Of a stretch of 64,000 nucleotides of DNA, positions 5,311-17,000 are shown in pieces (the first letter of the stretch is position 1; each line of letters starts with the position of its first letter). This DNA comes from a virus (lineage: Duplodnaviria; Heunggongvirae; Uroviricota; Caudoviricetes), in IMG/VR virus record IMGVR_UViG_3300035520_000484, positions 34,993 through 98,992 of that record, one strand, 5' to 3'. Position numbers and translations under genes: made by a program. The notes under the pieces were generated by a model. That model worked only from the letters and a program-made list of their open reading frames with translations. It was not told the DNA's origin and did no database searches.

Positions 5311-5352
5311 ATGTTAGTTGCGAATTTTACTTCAAGAATACCCACAATGGGT
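5311..5352 (+). CDS. MCP exon 1
   Basis: 14 codons ending in U of ATGGGT, which pairs with the intron IGS GCCCAT with a U-G wobble. Confidence 0.85.
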
Positions 5353-8300
5353 GAGAGTATTGCCCATTTAAAATCCTGTGAATTGCTGGAAGCCCTTCAT
5401 TACAACTAGCATCGGGTAATCAGCAGCGAAGCTTAAAGTTTAAAAGCTTTTTGAACGTTCAAAGACTAATACCTGAAACTAATTCGTTAGAATATATGGT
5501 AACACGAGCGCAGGATTTAAATGAGATAGTCTGACCTTATAAAATGATAAATTATAAGAAATATAGGATAAAGAGCCTATATGATAACACTTGAATACTA
5601 AAACATACGAAGATTGGTCTAAGTACCTTGGTTCTAAGCCTAACCGCCTTGGTGTGGTAGCTCGTATGTACACTGATAACACTCTTAACTTTATTACTGA
5701 TGGTTTGAGAAATGTCTACTATAAAAACTCTGATGTAGATAAATTCCAGCTGTCTAATTCTCTTCTTATTGAATGGGATGTTGAAACCAATCAAATTAAG
5801 AAGATTGAATTTGCAGAGGTTCCTGAAGGTACTGGAGCTAATGGTGAAGAAATTACAATGCGCTTCAAGGAAAATTATTATCAGAAGTATGATATTTTCC
5901 GTATTGATAAAACAAGACAGCAGTGTCAAGTTGTAAGCCGTCCTATTCGTAAGAGTGATAATTGCTGGGAAGTATAGGTACGTCTTGTAGATAATAACTA
6001 TGATACTACTTTGGATACTGATGGTTGTCAGATTGGTGACCTCACAACGTTCCAATCAGTTGCTCAACCTGAACTCTCAGAGGAGGGTAAAAAATATTTT
6101 GAATTGCTCTCCTCCGTTATGTTGGCTGCATAATGAAAAATTAAAAAAACTTCCTTAATTGCTGGAAACCTAAGTTGAAAGATATGGCAATCAGCAGCGA
6201 AACCTTGATAAAGGTACGTTCAACGACTATCGAAAGTATATTTAATGAGAAACACATTAAAGAATAAATGAGTAGAGTACACTATTCAGTGGAAACAGGA
6301 AGGATATATATAACGGTAATAGAAATATATATTAAGATATAGTCTGATCTTATAGGAAACTATAAGCTAACACAAATGTATTCAAAATTCTAGTCTTAGG
6401 TTGAAAGACATCGTAATTATATGACTTTCTTCCGTAACGATGCATCTTGGTCGTCATTATATGCACTTCAAGAAAATGTATTTATGTCGATCTCCGATGA
6501 TAAGGATAAGACTAAGACTGAAGGTGTTTATAAGATGCTTAAGAAGGAAAAGGAACTCCTTGATACCTTCATGTATGCTATGAACACTGGTTTGTTACTT
6601 AATAAGGGTAATATTGATCAGAATGGTAAAGCTACAATTCAGGATCCGGATACAAATAGGCCTATATATATTGGCGAAGGCCTGATTCCTCAAATAGAAG
6701 CTGCATGTAATAAATATTGCTATAATAACAAACCCACGCTTCCCTTGTTTAATCAAATCATGTCTGACATGGCTGATAAGTCTCAGAGTGATACTGGTAA
6801 CAAGTTTGTATTTATTTGTAACCGTCAATTCTGGAATGATGCAAACATGGTTCTTGGTGAGTATCTTTCTAACTATAGAACTGATGGTACTTACATGTAT
6901 TCTAAGAATGCAAATAAGGGCGATGGTGGTTATGTTAAGGTAGGTGCTACTTTTGATACCTACATTTTCGCTGGAAACCAGGTTACTTTTACCTGTGATC
7001 GTGCTTTGACACGTGAATATCCTGATAAGGGTTATGCAATCTGTCTTGACCTCACTGCAGATAAGACTACTGGTTCTCCTGCCCTTGCTAAGTATTCTAT
7101 GACTGGCAAAGACTTCATGACTAACAAGATAATCGGCGTAAACATTACCTGCGCCGCTTAAGAGGTGACTCTTTTGAAAATTAATTTCTTTAATTGCTGG
7201 AAAGCTAAGTACATTATGTATATGCTAATCAGCAGCCAAGACTAGGAATATGCAAGATCTAAGATCAGCTCCTAGTAAGGTTCAGAGACTAGTCTGAAAA
7301 GACGTACATCTTTTTATAGATGGAAATGGGAAATAACTTATATAAAGTATAAAATTATGGAATATATAGTGTATGTAACTATTAATACTGTTAATAATAA
7401 AATTTATGTAGGAGTTCATTAGACAGAAGATTCTACTAAATTTGATGGATATATCGGAAATGGAATTAATATAAATAAAGCTTCAAGTATAAAGCATCCA
7501 AAAGAACCTTTTCATTATGCTGTAAAAAAGTATGGTTTTAAAGCATTTAAAAGAATAGTTTTATGTTCATATGATAATATTTAGAGTGCTTTAGATTTAG
7601 AAGCTGAAATTGTAAATGAAGATTTCATTAAAAGAAAGGATACTTACAATATAACTATAGGCGGAGGACTTCCTCCACTGTTAAATAAAAAAGTTTATCA
7701 ATATGATTTTAATGGAAATTTTATAAAAGAATGGTTCTCTTTAACAGAAGCAGGAATAGAATTAAAAACTGCTCCTAATTGCATTGGAAGAGCTGCTTTA
7801 TATAAAAGAACTTCTGCTAGTAGTTATTGGTCGTTTTATAAATTTGATAAACTTGATATATCTGAATATAAAAAATATTCTCCAGAACAACCAGTTCATA
7901 TTTATGATGAATTTGGAATATATGTTAGAAGTTTTAAATCACAGACAGAATGTGCTAAATTTTTAAATAGTAATATATCTCATATACAAAGGTCTATTAA
8001 AACTAGCACTATGACAAAAGGATATTATATATCTTTGGAATTAAGTCAAACCTTTATTAAACCTAAAAAAGAAAGATTATCAGGATTAATTCATCAATAT
8101 GACTTAGATGGAAATTATATTCAATCCTTTAAAAATCCTACAGAATTAGAAACTAAATTAGGTTTAAAAACATCTGGTATTAATACTTCTATAAGATTAA
8201 ATCAATCATATAAAGGATTTCTTTGGTTACGCGGGGAAAAACTTGATAAAATTGATCCATTTATTTCAAAAACTAAATCTAGAAAGATTGGTCAATATTC

Positions 8301-8612
8301 TCAAGAAGGAAAATTAATAAAAGTTTTCGATACTTTAAGAGCAGCAAGAAAAGAATTTCCAAATGTTTCTAAAGTATTAAATGGAACAGCAAAACATTGT
8401 CATAATTTTATATTTAAATATTTAGAATAAGTTAAAGATATAGTCCGATCTTGTAAGAAATTACAAGTTAACATAAAAAATGAGGTGGCTACGATGGCAA
8501 GACTTCTGGTGAAGTTTCTAGCAATGTAGCCGGTTCTAAGCTTGTTATGTCAGGTTATGCTGGTGTTGCTGCATTCACACCGTTCAGAAGTGTGATTGTA
8601 CGCTAGGCATAA
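5311..8612 (+). CDS. Major capsid protein, spliced: join(5311..5352,5594..6088,6379..7139,8483..8612), 475 aa, code 15
   Basis: Exons total 1428 nt and join in frame: MLVANFTSRIPTMG|NTKTYEDW...PELSEEG|YSKFQSQVERHRNY...TNKIIGV|GGYDGKTSGEVSSNVAGSKL...VRQA. The product resembles crAss-like HK97-fold MCPs, sits after the scaffold gene and is followed by a strong terminator. Confidence 0.9.
5353..5593 (+). mobile_element. Group I intron 1 in MCP (241 nt, ORF-less)
   Basis: P1 ATGGGT/GCCCAT (5362-67); P10 GTATT (5357-61)/exon-2 AATAC; P3 AAATCCTG/CAGGATTT; core AATTGCTGGAAG 5381, AATCAGCAG 5418, GTTCAAAGACTA 5457, GAGATAGTC 5523; terminal G at 5593. Confidence 0.9.
5594..6088 (+). CDS. MCP exon 2
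   Basis: NTKTYEDWSKYLG...WEV*VRLVDNNY...PELSEEG; in-frame TAG at 5975-5977. Confidence 0.88.
6089..6378 (+). mobile_element. Group I intron 2 in MCP (290 nt, ORF-less)
   Basis: P1 GAGGAGGGT/GCTCTCCTC (6106-14) with U-G at the splice site; P10 ATTTTGAAT (6096-6104)/exon-3 ATTCAAAAT; core AATTGCTGGAAA 6157, AATCAGCAG 6189, GTTCAACGACTA 6218, AAGATATAGTC 6334; terminal G at 6378. Confidence 0.9.
6379..7139 (+). CDS. MCP exon 3
   Basis: YSKF*S*VERHRNYMTFFRND...TNKIIG-GT; contains track ORF 6421; TAGs at 6391 and 6397. Confidence 0.88.
7140..8482 (+). mobile_element. Group I intron 3 in MCP (1343 nt) carrying a homing endonuclease ORF
   Basis: P1 CGGCGT/GCGCCG (7151-56); P10 ACCT (7147-50)/exon-4 AGGT; core AATTGCTGGAAA 7192, AATCAGCAG 7227, GTTCAGAGACTA 7280, AAGATATAGTC 8435; terminal G at 8482; interrupts a Val codon (GT|A). 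Confidence 0.92.
7357..8430 (+). CDS. Intron-encoded GIY-YIG homing endonuclease with four NUMOD1-like repeats (357 aa, code 15)
   Basis: MEYIVYVTINTVNNKIYVGVH*TEDSTKFDGYIGNG is a GIY-YIG-type N-terminus; repeats VYQYDFNGNFIKEW, VHIYDEFGIYVRSF, IHQYDLDGNYIQSF, IGQYSQEGKLIKVF; two in-frame TAGs; lies between the R and S core elements. Confidence 0.88.
8483..8612 (+). CDS. MCP exon 4
   Basis: (A)GGT GGC TAC GAT...GYAGVAAFTPFRSVIVR*A-TAA. Confidence 0.88.
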
Positions 8613-8635
8613 TAAATTTTAAGATATATAGATTA

Positions 8636-8675
8636 GATAGGAGGAGCCTTAACACCCTCCTCCTATCAATTTTTT
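8636..8675 (+). terminator. Rho-independent terminator after MCP
   Basis: GATAGGAGGAG...CTCCTCCTATC stem followed by AATTTTTT. Confidence 0.8.
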
Positions 8676-8693
8676 AATGTGATATGAATTAAT

Positions 8694-9554
8694 ATGAGTA
8701 AGACTGTTACTAAAACAGAAGTTGTTTTTGACGATAAAAAATTTACATTAAGAAGTACATATGACAAGACTAATATTAAATATTTTATTTAGCCTTGTAA
8801 GAATAAGTACGGTCAATATCCTAATTGTATTAAGCGAGTAAATGCTTAGGGTGATATGATTATGAGTGAAAAAGAACGTAATGATTATTCAGAAGGTAAA
8901 GCTGTGTTCTTCCCTGAAAATCACGTATTTGAGATTACCAGTGGTAAAACTTATAATCTAGATAATAAATATGATAAAGCAGAATGGGAAGCTATTGAAA
9001 ATTGTCCTTATATTGCTAAGAGTCGAGATGAACGGAATCCTGATGGAACCTTAAAAATTGATGGTGAGCGTTGGACCCCATTTAAACCTACTCGTAACGG
9101 TGTAGCTGAACTTTATATAGATAGACCTGGCTTAGATGTTCAGCGTCGTATATCTCGTAAGCAATTGATTCACAAAGCTGAATCCTTTATTTATGATGAT
9201 CCTCGTGGTGCTCAAGGTCAACTTAATATGGCTAGAATCCTTGGTAAGGATATGACTAATCAGCCTACCGCTGATGTTATTGACTTTCTTATTAGAGTTG
9301 CAGAAAAAGATCCCAATAAGATTATTAATTTATATACAGGGGATGATATTTCGTTGAGACTTACTTTTATTGAAGCTAAAGAAAAGCATGTTATTTATGT
9401 AAAGAATAAACTTTATATGTATGGGGATAACATTGCACTTGGTGCTACCGATGATGCAGTTATTGCATGGATGAAAGAGCCTAGAAACCAAAAAGTATTA
9501 GAACTTATTAAACACGATACATACCCTGATTATTATCCTGAAGAAGAAAAATAA
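8694..9554 (+). CDS. crAss-like virion-module protein following MCP (286 aa, code 15)
   Basis: ATG 8694 is in frame with track ORF 8856 via two TAGs; TAATG-coupled to the next gene. Confidence 0.75.
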
Positions 9555-10594
9555 TGGCATATTCCGCAAGGCAATGCTTTGAAGGAGTTTTAACTGAATT
9601 AAGTAAGACTAAAACTTCTACTTTATTATTAGAGGATTTTAATTACCTTTTTAATAAAGCTCTTAACTAGTATATAAATAAACGTTACAATATATACGAT
9701 GTTAATTAGCAAACTACGGACGATTTACGAGTTTTAAAAGCAACTGCATTACTTAAACCTACTCCTGCCACAGCAATTATGAATACTGATTTAGTTGAGG
9801 TAGATCCTGATACAAAAGAAGTTATAAGCTCTTATCAAGATTGGGGAGCAGGAAAAGCTAAAATATTTGGTGGAACTTTTGAAGTAATGTTGCCTAAAGA
9901 CTATCTACATATTCTTAATTGTATATGTATTTATACTCTTGATAAAAGATATAAATGTTACAATAAGGGCGATCAAGTAGCTTTTGCAGCCACACGTTTA
10001 ACTGCAGATGCTTGGAGTACAATTATTAACGATTTCTTTAATCGTCCAAAACCTCAACGCCCCTATTATTATATTCATAATGTAAATACTAATCCTGATG
10101 GTTATGTAACTAATCCTTATGATAGTGAAACTGGTACAGGCACAGATTAGTATGAGTACGTTAAATTAGGAGAATCTACTGAAGAAGAGACTGTTCCTGA
10201 ATCTTCTACTTATAAACGAACAGTAAAATTAGACGATGAATATGGTCTTGATTTAGTAGATAGAACAGCATATCAAAGAACTCCTAACTCTACAGGAGTA
10301 CGCTGTGAAATTCGATATGGTCGTGATACTAGTGTATTTAGACTAGTGGGTGTTTCCATTGATTATATTAAAGCTCCATAGCAAATTCGTCTAACGTAGG
10401 AATAGATAGATTTAACAGAAGATACATCATAGATTCTGGAATTTCCAGATTATGTATGTTAGGAGATTATAAATGAGTTGGTAACTTTAATTATGGAACA
10501 GAACGCTGATCCAAGAACTTAGACACATCAACAAGTTACACAGTCTATTGCATAGCCAACTCAGCAATAGGCGCAAACGCCTCAATAGGCATAA
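9554..10594 (+). CDS. Probable tail ring (head-tail connector) protein (346 aa, code 15)
   Basis: LEDFNYLFNKALN*YINKRYNIYDVN*QTTDDLRVL and IDYIKAP*QIRLT*E*IDLTEDTS*ILEFPDYVC*EIINELV resemble Crassvirales ring proteins as recalled; only TAG interruptions. Confidence 0.7.
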
Positions 10595-10609
10595 TAAATC
10601 TATTTAGTT

Positions 10610-11533
10610 ATGTTTAATTTTACAACTACTACCGTACTTAACTCTTTATCTGATCTTACAACTGGTAAAGATCTTATTACTTCACTTTCTGACAAATCAG
10701 GTGTAACCGTTAAGAGAGTTGGTACTTTCCTTAAAGATAATGTTCTTTCCTTCTATAAGGCAGTTGGTAATGATCCTGTAATGGAAAAAGTTACCATTGA
10801 CTTGTCAAAAGTTAAAGGTGCTGAGAAAGGTAAGCAATATAGACTTGCTCTTTATATTGGTCTTACACAAGCTTCTCAGGATTCTCGCTATTCAAATGAT
10901 ATGGTACTTAAGGGTAAACCTTTTACTGTAGATTTTGTATGGAAGGATAGTTCTGAAGCTACTGTAGAAGCTCTTGTAAAAACTATTAAAAAGTATGAAG
11001 TTCTCGTTTATGGAGAAAAACTGCTTGATATTGATAGTGATAGCTTTACTATTACTCTTACTGCAACTACTGAGTTCCAGAGATTTAAGAAAGTAAATAT
11101 TGAAGAATTTGATAAGGATGCGTACATGGGCATGGGTGATTATACTCCTGTTCTTACTCTTGAAGATACCGAAGCTGTTAAGAAAGTAGACGGTGTTGAA
11201 GGTTTTGGTACTTATTCTTATATTCTTCATAATCTTCGTCTCCCGACTTCTGCTCGTACTGAAGCATTTGCTATCAATCAGGATGAATCTCCGATTCCTG
11301 GTGCAGTATACGATCAGTATACTATTCACTATTGCAAGAATCGTGGTCCTCTTGGTATGAACGCAGTTGGTGAAGTTACTAAATCAGTTACTACTCATGT
11401 ATTCTATGTTCTTCACTCTCTTGCTGATAAGTTTGAAGAAGCTTTTGGTGACATCAAAGCAACAGATGCTCATGATGGTCATGAATCAAAATCAGAAGCT
11501 GAGCAGGCTGCTGAAACAGTAGCAGGAGAATAA
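10610..11533 (+). CDS. Virion structural protein, possibly auxiliary capsid protein (307 aa)
   Basis: Intact ORF with no in-frame TAG, followed by its own terminator; size and position in the capsid module suggest a high-copy structural protein (inference). Confidence 0.55.
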   Translation: MFNFTTTTVLNSLSDLTTGKDLITSLSDKSGVTVKRVGTFLKDNVLSFYKAVGNDPVMEKVTIDLSKVKGAEKGKQYRLALYIGLTQASQDSRYSNDMVLKGKPFTVDFVWKDSSEATVEALVKTIKKYEVLVYGEKLLDIDSDSFTITLTATTEFQRFKKVNIEEFDKDAYMGMGDYTPVLTLEDTEAVKKVDGVEGFGTYSYILHNLRLPTSARTEAFAINQDESPIPGAVYDQYTIHYCKNRGPLGMNAVGEVTKSVTTHVFYVLHSLADKFEEAFGDIKATDAHDGHESKSEAEQAAETVAGE

Positions 11534-11553
11534 TATTATTGATTTATAGTAAT

Positions 11554-11585
11554 GGCGAGGGCGTCAATTCGCCTTCGCCTTTTTT
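11554..11585 (+). terminator. Rho-independent terminator
   Basis: GGCGAGGGCG-TCAATT-CGCCTTCGCC followed by TTTTTT. Confidence 0.85.
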
Positions 11586-11590
11586 AGTTT

Positions 11591-12280
11591 ATGTATAATC
11601 AAATTGAAAAATTAGCTTCGGCTATACATAATGATATTATAGGAGGTTTAAGAGGTTATCATACTAATTTAAGCTTATCTATGGAATAGCTTGAATAGGA
11701 TATTGTAGATGAACGTTTACAAATTATTAAAGAATATTCTCTTAAAGGTTCTCTTCCTACTAAAGATCTTTATATATCTATAAATTGTATTCCTATAGAT
11801 TGTAAAGATATTGAAAGATGTAGATGTGGAGGTAGTTCTGAAGATGAAACTCCAACAGCTCATTTTGAAATTCCTTAGATTGTAAATGATTATGGAAATC
11901 TATCTATAGATTACATAGGTTCTACAGATAGATAGAATCCTTTTATATACTATACTTCTTCAGCTCAACAACGTTATCATAAATATCGTAAAAGAGGAAA
12001 AAACAAACCCTATGTATGGATTGATGTAACTCCTAATGAAAATGGAATGTATGATTGCTTTGTTTTTAATGCTCCATATTTATAGGAAGTTTCAATTACT
12101 GCAATCTTTAAAGATTTAAGATAGCTAGAAGGTTATGGATGCTGTAATGATGGGCAAGACGATAATATGACTTTTATTAATAATGAAATTAAGAAAAGAG
12201 TTACTGAGAAAAAAATCAGATATTATCGCTAGCTCCAGCCTTCTTTATTACCTAATGATCAACAATATATTGCTGGATGA
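11591..12280 (+). CDS. Probable tail ring protein (229 aa, code 15; absent from ORF track)
   Basis: MYNQIEKLASAIHNDIIGGLRG...SME*LE*DIVDERLQIIKEY...KKIRYYR*LQPSLLPNDQQYIAG-TGA; frame checked, only TAG interruptions. Confidence 0.75.
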
Positions 12281-12338
12281 CCTACTCTGGAATAATATAT
12301 AAATATACCTCACCCTCTTAATAATTATATTTGGAAAT

Positions 12339-13028
12339 ATGAATAATTTTCATTACGCAATGAGTTTATTAGACACTCTATATGGGATTAATATGCAAGA
12401 AGATGATTTTGAAGAAATTGCATTAATAGGGTGGAAATTAATAGGAAATAAACGTACTAGAATATATAGATATAGTACAACAGTAGATGATTGCAGTGAA
12501 GGTGTAGAACTTCCTTGTAATGTTGATGAATTAGAAGCAGTCACTACTGACTTTGAAGATTGGAATTATAGCACAAATGATACTCCTAATGGAGATATTA
12601 ATTCTGCATATACTGAAGAATATATTGAAGGTAGAAAACAATTCCGTTCTCCTTTATATGCTCCAGGTAAATTTATACGTTACGAAAGAGTTGGTAATAC
12701 TCTATATTTTGATCATCCTCATGGAAAGATACATATCTTATATAAAGGTGAACTACTTGATGATGATGGACTTCCTGAAATAACTGATAAAGAAGCTATG
12801 GCATTAGCTACTTATTGTGCATATGTTACTAAATTTAAAGAAGGATTAGCAACAAATAATTAGAACACAATAGTTTTTGCAGATACGCTTAAAAAAAGAT
12901 GGGATGTTCAAATTGATTAGGCACGAGCTGACTATTATATGTCTCAAAATGAATGGGATCAAGTATTAGATGCCAAGAATAGTTGGAATCGTAAGACTTA
13001 TGGTAAATCATTAAAATATAACCGATGA
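12339..13028 (+). CDS. Probable tail ring/tubular protein (229 aa, code 15)
   Basis: Track ORF 12339-12863 continues through TAGs to ...MSQNEWDQVLDAKNSWNRKTYGKSLKYNR-TGA, overlapping the next ATG (ATGA). Confidence 0.7.
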
Positions 13029-14047
13029 GCTATAGTACAGGATGTGCTTTTAATCTGGATGATATGATAATGAATCTTCCCTTTCGTAAATTAACTTTTA
13101 CTGGAGAAGATTGTGCAAATGTTATTAAAGATAATCACAGACATCGGTTAGTTAAAAAAATTTTTAGAGAGTGTTTTAAATTAGTAATTAAGGATATTAT
13201 AAACAATAATGTTACATTTTGGCTGCCTTTGACAGGTATTCGTAAATGTAATATGCACATGAAAAAGTTTCAAAATAAAGACTTTAAAAATCTAAGAAAA
13301 AGTGGTAAATGGAAAGATGTAGATTTTGTTAAATCTTACTTTACTGCTTATCAAATTGGATTTTATATGTTAGGAAATAGAACTCCTAGAACTAAACTTG
13401 TTTATCTTAATAAGGAATTAACTAAAATTATTACAGATAATACGAATAAAGGTATGCCTTATGGTGATGGGAAAACTGATACTTATATAAAGGATTATTA
13501 TAATGATGTACATAAGAAATTTCCTACTATTCCATTATAGGATATAAAGCGTATTTTGAATTTTACTTGGAAATCTCTATATTTACACAATAGTTATGGA
13601 GGTGATACATTAATTACTGATAAGGAGATTTGGTGTTACATAGGTAACTTACGAAAAGATCCGATAGAGCATTTTCTGTACTATATTAAGAAGCTTTCGA
13701 CCAAACTTAGAGTACTTTATCGAAGAAAAAGAATCCCATATAATGGTTATTATTACTTTGCATTAAATGATGTTTAGTATGATAATTATTTAAAATAGAA
13801 AAAGAAAAGAGGGAGACCTAGAAAAAACTTTGAGTATGGTAATGTTCTTCTTTACTAGATAGAAGAAGAGTGTAAATTAGTAGAGCATAATAAACGATAT
13901 ATATTTAGAATCCCATATGTTTCTACAATTGGTTATACTCACTTTATATACAATTTAGTAACTGGAAATGCGGAATTAATACTTATTAGAGAACCTCTAA
14001 AATTCAAAGATATATTAACATGTACAAATGATTATGAAATATTATGA
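13025..14047 (+). CDS. Basic protein in tail module, possibly the IHF/HU-like Crassvirales protein (340 aa, code 15)
   Basis: Joins track ORFs 13025 and 13556; K/R-rich; ATGA overlaps at both ends. Fold assignment is inferred from gene order. Confidence 0.5.
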
Positions 14048-17000
14048 AACAAAGTTCATCAACTAATACTTTTACAGGAGGATTAGTACAAGATCTAAAT
14101 CCTCTAAATAATGTTAGTAGAATGTAGGATGTACTTACTAATTGTTTAAATGGTACTCTTATTACTTATAATGGTAATGAATATGTATTATAGAATGATA
14201 TGGGAAATGGCAGAGTAGAAACTGCTTATTTACCAGAAGGTTTTATTCCAGTAGGTACAGCAGAATTAGGAGGTATCATTTATATAATTTCGTATAATCC
14301 TCTGACATAGCAAAGTTAGATAGGAAGTTTTCCGTCTCCAGAACGAAATATTACATCTGATGATGTATTACCAAAAAATGCTAAAGAATTAACATATAAT
14401 GACTTAATTACAGAAAAGTCCATTGGAAATGGAACAATAACTAAAAAATATGCTTGTGTTAAAAGTCCTAAATATAAACTGACTCTTTTAGATAAAGAAA
14501 TTAATCCTGGAGATAAATTTCAAATATATAGTTAGAACATTAATAAATTTCAAAAATTTTTAAGTGCATATTCTAGTGAATCGGAATAGAATATAAATAA
14601 GATTCCTAAATATCTAAAATTACATGTTGTTTGTGTTGATAGTCAAGGAAGTATAACATTTTTAGATGATAATCTAGTATGGGAAAATGATTATTATATT
14701 AAAAGCTATGAAAATGAAAATGATTTAGATGATATTGATGAATATAGGAATTTAGTAGAATCTAATTATAATGTATTTATTTCTAGGTCTAAAGGCACTT
14801 TAGCTATTCTAGCTGAATTAGAGTGCATTGATACTTTCGAGGTAACTTGGGATGCTGATATAAAGGATTATATACCTGAGGATGAGAAGAAGGTCTTGTT
14901 TAATAAATAGGCTGATATTACATTTACTTTAAAATGGTCTTATGATAATGAATATGCTCCCAATGAAGTAAATTTGAATAAATTTCTGTTTATTAATACA
15001 GATATTATGGACTATCCTATAAAAGAAGTTACTAATATTAAAGATGACACAAATAATTATGATAAAGATAATTGTGAATATAAATATTAGTATAAATTAA
15101 TGTACAATTAGGTATCTACTACAGATACTTCAGAGATTGATACTTAGGATTTAACTATAGGAACTGTAGCAACTATAGCATCTAAACCTGGGGATTTTGC
15201 TAATTTCTCACCATTATCTTAGCAGGAAATTCAACATTATACTATAATTCCAGGTATGGAATTTGGATATATGGATTATTTAGCTAAAACTATAGATATT
15301 AATATATCTAAATTAGGAACTGGCGATACTGATTTAATAGAATGGAAATATTATGTTAATGATTCTAATATTATTCTAAACTGGGGATTAGACTGTTATC
15401 CAGAGAAAAATAAGCAAGTTAATAAAGTAACTTTTGACTTCTTTAAATCAAATAGTCAATTTAAAGGGTATCAATTTAATAATCCAGATGATTACGAAAA
15501 AAATATAAACATAAATATAGATTTAGATAAGTATAATGATAAATATCGTACAGGAGATCCTTATATATTAAATTGGACTAAATTTGAAAAAGAATCAGGG
15601 ACTGAATATTTAAGCCCTGATTATACTATAGTTTTTGATGATAAAGAATCATATTCTGGACATTTTACTGAAGATATTCATTTAATGCAATCTTCAATTG
15701 ATGAAGGATTAAAACCTAATGATTTTTATCTTGTAAGAATTACTATCAATTATTCTGGAGAAGATAGGTATTTTTATAGAATCATACATACTTGTAAAGT
15801 ATTTAATCAAACATATTTAGATAATATCAATACTTCTAATTTTGATTTTAAAAATATACAATTAGGAACTATTGATCCTCCTAAAGTGTTAGTTAATAAC
15901 GTAAGAACTACTTGGGGTACATTAAATACTAAATATGAAAATAATGGTGATATTCTTGATATAAATAAAAATATTTATTTAGAAGAAACAGTATATGATA
16001 AAACTAATATACACAATACTACAAGTTTAGAAATGAATGCAACTATGGAACTTGTATCTGATTGTGCTACTTTTGATCTTACAGGATGTGAGTTAAAAGA
16101 GAATACTGTTTCTAGTCCATTAACTTTTACCAATAATGCTGAATTAATATTTACTGATTATAAAGATGATACTTTTGAAGATAGAAAAATTAATTATGAC
16201 ATTTTTGGGGAATATAAGTTCCAATCAAATGGCTGTAATATAAACATTCAAGCTAATGACCTTTTTATTTATACGCCTTTTAATGCAAGATATGAGACAT
16301 CTAAAACTCAATAGTTAGATTATGAATTAACTCAAATTTCTCATCCTACTCCACAAGTTAATAATATTAGATTAGGAGAAACATATTTGGATGTAGAAAT
16401 GGGAGAAACTAAAACTTTTAATGCTTGGTAGACTGAAATTTGGTTATCTATGTAGGAAGGGGGAGCTTCTTCTGCTACTTTAGGAAATCTCGGAACTCAT
16501 GATTATACAATTAGTAATTGGAAATTCGGTCAACAAAGTCATAGTGCTAAACTTGGTTATCATTATATGATAAATAATATTTTATATAATACTGATAGCT
16601 CTGGTGATAATTGGACATTTATAAAAAGTGGTGAATTATCGAATATAAGCGAATAGACTTTAGTTTAGACATATGCTATTAATTATAGAAATGGTGCATG
16701 TAATTTAATTAATTTTGTAGCAGAACCTACAGGAAGTAAAAAATATTATATTACAACTCCTAATGATGATACATATAGAAAAAGAGTATCACAAAGTGCT
16801 GATGAATATGAAGAATATCTTAACAACACTAATTATAGTAATTCTATAGAAAAAGTATTCGATACTCTATATAAATGGGCTAAACCAAAATCTAATAATC
16901 TTGTTGAAATATATACTTTATCTAATCTTAATTATTATTCATCATATTTATTAACTCCCGTTTTTAAATATAAAACTAATAATGTAATATACCCTAATAC

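Follow-up and report, generated by a model that had tools for sequence, protein, structure and literature searches.

Group I introns in capsid genes are already on record for crAss-like phages. The passages on introns in Yutin et al. 2021 (PMC7886860) report that Delta phages have introns in their major capsid protein (MCP) genes and that one such gene of a Zeta phage is split into five fragments; in a 2023 review (PMC10136315) this Zeta example is said to hold three group I introns. As these two sources present it, that gene (Zeta cMAG OLRF01000054) resembles the one analysed here in phage group, in the gene affected, in holding several group I introns and in having endonuclease ORFs within introns; it is described as five fragments with no recoded stops, whereas the present gene has four exons and four TAG codons read as glutamine. 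A structural gene with three group I introns is also known from phage Twort (orf142; Landthaler and Shub 1999, in the part of PMC11878797 that cites it), where, as here, three group I introns sit in one late phage gene; orf142 differs in being a Staphylococcus phage tail protein gene and in that splicing and exon skipping were demonstrated experimentally there. Three introns per gene also occur in polymerase and terminase genes of Bastillevirinae. The orf142 introns are reportedly closely spaced and mutually similar, whereas those of the present MCP gene come from three lineages. T4 offers a further comparison, as its td/sunY-type IA2 introns carry P7.1/P7.2 between P7 and P3, like introns 2 and 3 here, and T4 introns bear GIY-YIG ORFs, like intron 3, for whose ORF the nearest phage proteins are annotated as segD/Seg-like. 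The seg genes of T4 are free-standing and I-TevI is encoded in P6 of td, whereas the Seg-like gene here lies in the P8 loop of its intron.

The locus lies in a stretch of 64,000 nucleotides (the window) taken from a virus record of 162,992 bases, which is 91% complete and falls within the Zeta-group range of 145-192 kb. Its MCP shares 82.5% identity with the one encoded by OLYV01000018, and four genes next to it are arranged alike in both; that genome is classed as zeta_6 with TAG read as glutamine in the Supplementary Data of Yutin et al. 2021 (PMC7886860). Because MCP and gene order match, we place the phage in the Zeta group of crAss-like phages, where it belongs as judged by this close kinship. 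Throughout the best reading of the window (genetic code 15) TAG is a sense codon for glutamine, with ORFs of at least 100 aa covering 94% of the window under code 15 versus 37% under code 11, and the genome encodes a tRNA with a CUA anticodon (C1 153110-153184). The recoding is limited to part of the genome. At 10610-11533, a 307-aa structural-module gene has zero TAG codons, while the genes that flank it have 12 and 8. Very long ORFs (3043, 3437, 359 and 1627 aa under code 15) occupy 32067-57461 and probably encode virion cargo or RNA polymerase proteins; intron motifs were looked for in these long ORFs and none were found.

Removal of the three introns listed in Table 1 from 5311-8612 leaves 1428 nt, that is, 475 codons and a TAA stop. 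A sequence-only reading had proposed these introns, and their coordinates proved exact to the nucleotide. Its claim of a continuous frame of 475 aa was correct in length, but it had omitted that the spliced coding sequence requires TAG to be read as glutamine at codons 142, 184, 186 and 474. The hairpin downstream of the gene, with the U run that follows it, is likely an intrinsic terminator.

Table 1. Features of the MCP locus (window coordinates)
Feature	Position	Strand	Description
MCP exon 1	5311..5352	+	codons 1-14, ends in GGU; colinear with intronless relatives
Group I intron 1	5353..5593	+	241 nt, after codon 14, phase 0, no ORF; RF00028
MCP exon 2	5594..6088	+	codons 15-179, one TAG read as Gln
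Group I intron 2	6089..6378	+	290 nt, after codon 179, phase 0, no ORF; RF00028
MCP exon 3	6379..7139	+	codon 180 to base 2 of codon 433, two TAG read as Gln; PF23898
Group I intron 3	7140..8482	+	1343 nt, inside codon 433, phase 2, endonuclease gene inside; RF00028
Predicted Seg-like GIY-YIG homing endonuclease	7357..8430	+	357 aa, NUMOD1-type repeats, two TAG read as Gln
MCP exon 4	8483..8612	+	last base of codon 433 to stop, one TAG read as Gln (codon 474)
Candidate intrinsic terminator	8633..8680	+	hairpin of -19.6 kcal/mol, then U run, 3' of MCP stop

The junctions were determined from the exons and from the intron RNA together. The spliced coding sequence aligned without gaps to 13 distinct intronless alleles (12 at 80-83% amino acid identity and one at 65%), with agreement at the junction codons. 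This alignment alone leaves junctions 1 and 3 free to shift by a few bases; they are nevertheless fixed to the nucleotide because the U/G rule applies together with P1 and P10. All 5' exons end in U and all introns in G; the P1 helices of introns 1, 2 and 3 have 7, 9 and 6 bp and end in U·G, and their P10 helices have 6, 9 and 6 bp. For each intron, the true site was the only one among the 445 U-ending positions of the spliced coding sequence at which both helices reached these lengths. Spliced alignment on the raw window gave the same three junctions, with the spliced protein itself as the query and hence not independently. Skipping of exon 2 would stay in frame (310 aa), and its alternative P10 of 5 bp is near chance expectation, so we do not claim it. 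As the MCP gene is single-copy in the genome and retention of intron 1, 2 or 3 would stop translation at codon 41, 193 or 439, a viable phage must splice all three.

We regard the identity of the spliced product as secure: it is a crAss-type MCP with an HK97 fold, the fold being modelled on a relative. This agrees with the earlier proposal, and the match to such proteins is full-length. The intronless relative L001, 83% identical, scored 52.3 bits against PF23898 (Crass_capsid; cut-off 27), and exon 3 by itself scored 26.5 bits (E 2.7e-6). Since folding of a single sequence gave a pLDDT of 31, an alignment-based fold of the relative was used instead (40 homologues, pLDDT 63), for which the best Foldseek hits were the ΦcrAss001 capsid chains 7qoi, 7qoh and 7qof (E ~1e-18), followed by other HK97-fold shells. 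Sequence searches of the PDB found no capsid. The genes downstream of the MCP gene encode crAss ring proteins.

The Rfam group I model RF00028 matched all three introns, at 59.4 bits (E 1.5e-12) for intron 1, 84.1 bits (E 6e-20) for intron 2 and 46.0 bits (E 1.6e-8) for intron 3, the last under the 50-bit cut-off because the ORF splits the match. The elements that had been read from the sequence, namely a P1 with U·G, a P10, four conserved core segments and a terminal G, were recovered in every intron: the P, Q, R and S motifs occur in order, with P3, the P4-P6 motifs and a P7 that contains the guanosine-binding G-C pair. Both intron 2 and intron 3 possess P2, P3, P4-P6, P7 with a P7.1/P7.2 extension, P8 and P9; intron 2 combines these with its 9-bp P1 and P10 and a closed P8, and in intron 3 the endonuclease gene lies between the two arms of P8 (7334-7341 and 8427-8434), with its stop codon in the 3' arm. 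The layout is IA2-like, the phage type, a subgroup judged here from structure and not from subgroup models. The RF00028 search gave no further group I match in the window. Just past the window end, on the minus strand (C1 ~100400-99400), a fourth group I intron, whose ORF is GIY-YIG-like and 254 aa long, interrupts what appears to be a DNA polymerase gene; the Rfam search of the genome missed it. A probable fifth lies in a ribonucleotide reductase-like gene (C1 ~113320-112480, minus strand), with a 189-aa ORF upstream of its R motif. With these two, three of about five introns of the genome would be in the capsid gene.

Intron 1 departs from this plan in its core. Its IGS/P1 G is at 5362, P3 pairs 5374-5380 with 5509-5515, P7 pairs 5464-5468 with 5527-5531, and two P9 hairpins follow. 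It has no P2, so that P1 passes almost directly to P3, and no P8, with only 4 nt (5516-5519) between the 3' strand of P3 and J8/7, which itself deviates from the usual sequence. Among 14 distinct introns at this site of the MCP gene (site 14), ten have a linker of 3-6 nt in the place of P8 and the other four a hairpin of 15-18 nt; introns at other sites have at least 12 nt there by a looser measure, except for one doubtful call (L127). The 14 are all ORF-less, in keeping with the fact that the loop in which the endonuclease lies at most other sites is missing or small in them. Two very small site-14 introns, L152:1212-1372 (161 nt) and L129:496-674 (179 nt), have shortened P5/P6 and no P7 extension.

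Such a core raises the question of whether intron 1 works. P8-less L1949 introns of myxomycete rDNA share with it a catalytic core without the P8 helix and do not self-splice as naked RNA, needing host factors (PMC3679873); they are nuclear, obligatory, vertically inherited and host-factor dependent, whereas intron 1 is optional, short and part of a phage mRNA. As natural P8-less group I introns thus exist, intron 1 can be taken as a variant and is not excluded from group I, and by analogy it may need a protein for splicing. A stronger version of this doubt would make intron 1 a degenerate element that splices poorly or not at all, leaving the genome defective or reliant on a helper protein or on the core of another intron. 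The missing P2 and P8, the aberrant J8/7 and the precedent of host-factor dependence would all fit this explanation, which we nonetheless consider unlikely, since the P8-less form recurs in ten of 14 site-14 introns from different phages, compensating changes maintain P3 and P9, and P10 follows the exon. (MAFFT misplaced the P3 3' strand of the site-14 introns, and pair counts on that alignment were not used.) This recurrence, with the maintained helices and the P10 that tracks its exon, indicates selection for splicing in an essential gene. More tentatively, and with rather less than even confidence, we suggest that intron 1 represents a phage lineage of minimal ribozymes (179-338 nt) without P2 and P8 that self-splice unaided from an essential mRNA and depend for their spread solely on hitch-hiking with endonuclease introns elsewhere in the gene. 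A shallow search of the literature turned up no published P8-less phage intron that self-splices.

The assignment of ORFs among the introns, two without and one with an endonuclease, was borne out. By its sequence, the intron 3 ORF is a Seg-like GIY-YIG homing endonuclease of presumed activity, with an N-terminal GIY-YIG domain and C-terminal NUMOD repeats. It matched GIY-YIG (E 0.0014) and NUMOD1 (E 9e-15) in Pfam and TIGR01453 (E 6e-12), with Pfam and TIGR scores below the curated cut-offs, as well as phrog_314, and its nearest phage matches are annotated as segD or Seg-like. The ORF retains Y6, Y17, G19, H21, E82 and N98, at positions that 44-45 of 45 related ORFs conserve. T4-like phages with Seg-like genes (e.g. 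MT341500.1) were among the nearest matches. In T4, segD adjoins the major capsid gene 23, so that in both phage groups enzymes of related type are found at capsid genes.

Spliced alignment of fetched loci from relatives revealed about 20 insertion sites in the MCP gene, and each of the three in the present gene (after codon 14, after codon 179 and inside codon 433) is also occupied in relatives. Full-length genes carry 0, 1, 2, 3, 4, 5, 7 or 9 introns, the extreme being L265 (IMGVR_UViG_3300017569_000030, 7714-15779), in which nine group I introns leave exons down to 24-33 nt. Omitted from the counts as spliced-alignment artefacts were L010, the 5' ends of L018, L019 and L126, and site 179 of L161. 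The view that three introns are a high load on one MCP gene fails against these numbers, against the reuse of the same sites and against the published five-fragment Zeta gene; for this clade, three is a moderate load. ORFs of a different kind, LAGLIDADG-like, occur in the site-280 intron of L265 and the site-27 intron of L013.

The same survey bears on whether the introns have been domesticated, with splicing and TAG read-through delaying or gating capsid synthesis. Such a role could explain why unspliced RNA would yield just a 41-aa product and why four TAG codons stand in this gene in a genome that is recoded only in part. We found, however, 69 distinct intronless alleles, 12 of them at least 75% identical, and intron sets that vary freely between close relatives, and the site-by-site grouping of the introns and endonucleases is that of mobile elements. 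Because intronless alleles are common and intron sets vary so freely, a regulatory role is highly unlikely.

Grouping by site also speaks to the origin of the three introns. The endonucleases cluster by site (15 changes versus 32.5 when shuffled), that of intron 3 grouping with five others from site 432.2 (support 97/87), and for 59 of 66 introns the nearest neighbour by core was from the same site. Alternatively, a single intron could have entered the gene and multiplied there through reverse splicing, giving three related copies. The core motifs common to all three introns and the likeness of the intron 3 core to that of intron 2 (0.74) would agree with this, whereas introns 1 and 2 are nearer to same-site introns of other phages (0.81 and 0.83) than to each other (cores 0.60-0.74 alike), the same-site rule holds across the sample, and intron 3 falls in the site-432 lineage by its 5' region and its endonuclease. 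Recent copying within the gene is thereby largely refuted, and we rate this origin as extremely unlikely. The lineage of the trimmed intron 3 core is ambiguous, its likeness being 0.80 to site-179 introns versus 0.72 to site-432 introns, with weak tree support.

At site 14, P10 tracks the 3' exon, with 4.14 of 6 possible pairs for an intron with its own exon versus 3.33 when crossed (permutation p 0.00025, on related and hence non-independent rows), and a like trend was found at sites 179 and 432 (p 0.07 and 0.08). Codon 432 takes part in the P1 helix; it reads GGC in six of six intron-bearing alleles and in none of the 69 intronless ones, as P1 pairing or co-conversion predicts. Insertion sites did not lie significantly in more conserved parts of the protein (0.804 versus 0.789, p 0.18). 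In six relatives, introns end in A: at site 432.2 in L008:2361-3358, L017:391-1388 and L107:4762-6135, and at site 190.0 in L018:881-1121, L019:1027-1267 and L025:6510-6750. Exon colinearity and P10 both put the 3' splice site after the A, and introns at these sites in other phages end in G. An omega-A is known in the sea anemone ND5-717 intron (PMC8146996), and a phrase search of the literature found no phage example.

We consider it very likely that the MCP gene contains three independently acquired, site-specific, IA2-like introns that are excised from the late mRNA and persist as selfish passengers, spread by homing and co-conversion. In group I chemistry, free guanosine cuts at the U·G pair and the exons are joined after the terminal G. 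Here, guanosine would attack after the U of the P1 U·G pair, after which the 5' exon, positioned by P10, would attack after the terminal G; the 475-aa capsid protein would form once all three introns are out and the four TAG codons are read as glutamine. Intron 3 would spread by homing via its own GIY-YIG endonuclease, and introns 2 and 1, ~0.76 and 1.5 kb upstream of it, most likely owe their spread or persistence to co-conversion during the homing of an endonuclease intron nearby. Complete site-179 introns in relatives have ~990 nt with a 237-aa endonuclease, intron 2 being the only ORF-less one seen there. Among 18 distinct full-length gene layouts, ORF-less introns never occurred on their own, and each of the four layouts with a single intron included an endonuclease (p 0.028; L032 left out, in a small sample of related genomes), a weak lead towards hitch-hiking of ORF-less introns on endonuclease introns.

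RNA data neither support nor refute splicing of the three introns. Small portions of the stretch (share 0.05-0.10) were present in three gut metatranscriptome runs, whose contigs (depth 2-10, thin cover) included none that spanned a junction. Two contigs, one beginning at 6381-6382, close to where intron 2 ends, and one wholly inside intron 1, were not counted as evidence of splicing. In Bacteroidota Jug phages, RNA reads back the splicing of many small group I introns (PMC12880540).

Overall, a multi-intron capsid gene is ordinary for its group, and the known picture of intron-rich Zeta phages is unchanged by these findings. For annotation, they mean that standard gene callers fragment this MCP and that both splicing and TAG read as glutamine are needed to recover it. 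The P8-less intron 1 offers a cheap test of the minimum natural size of a group I core. The MCP gene of the clade, with about 20 intron sites that each have their own endonuclease lineage, provides a compact natural set in which to study how introns home, lose their endonucleases and hitch-hike.
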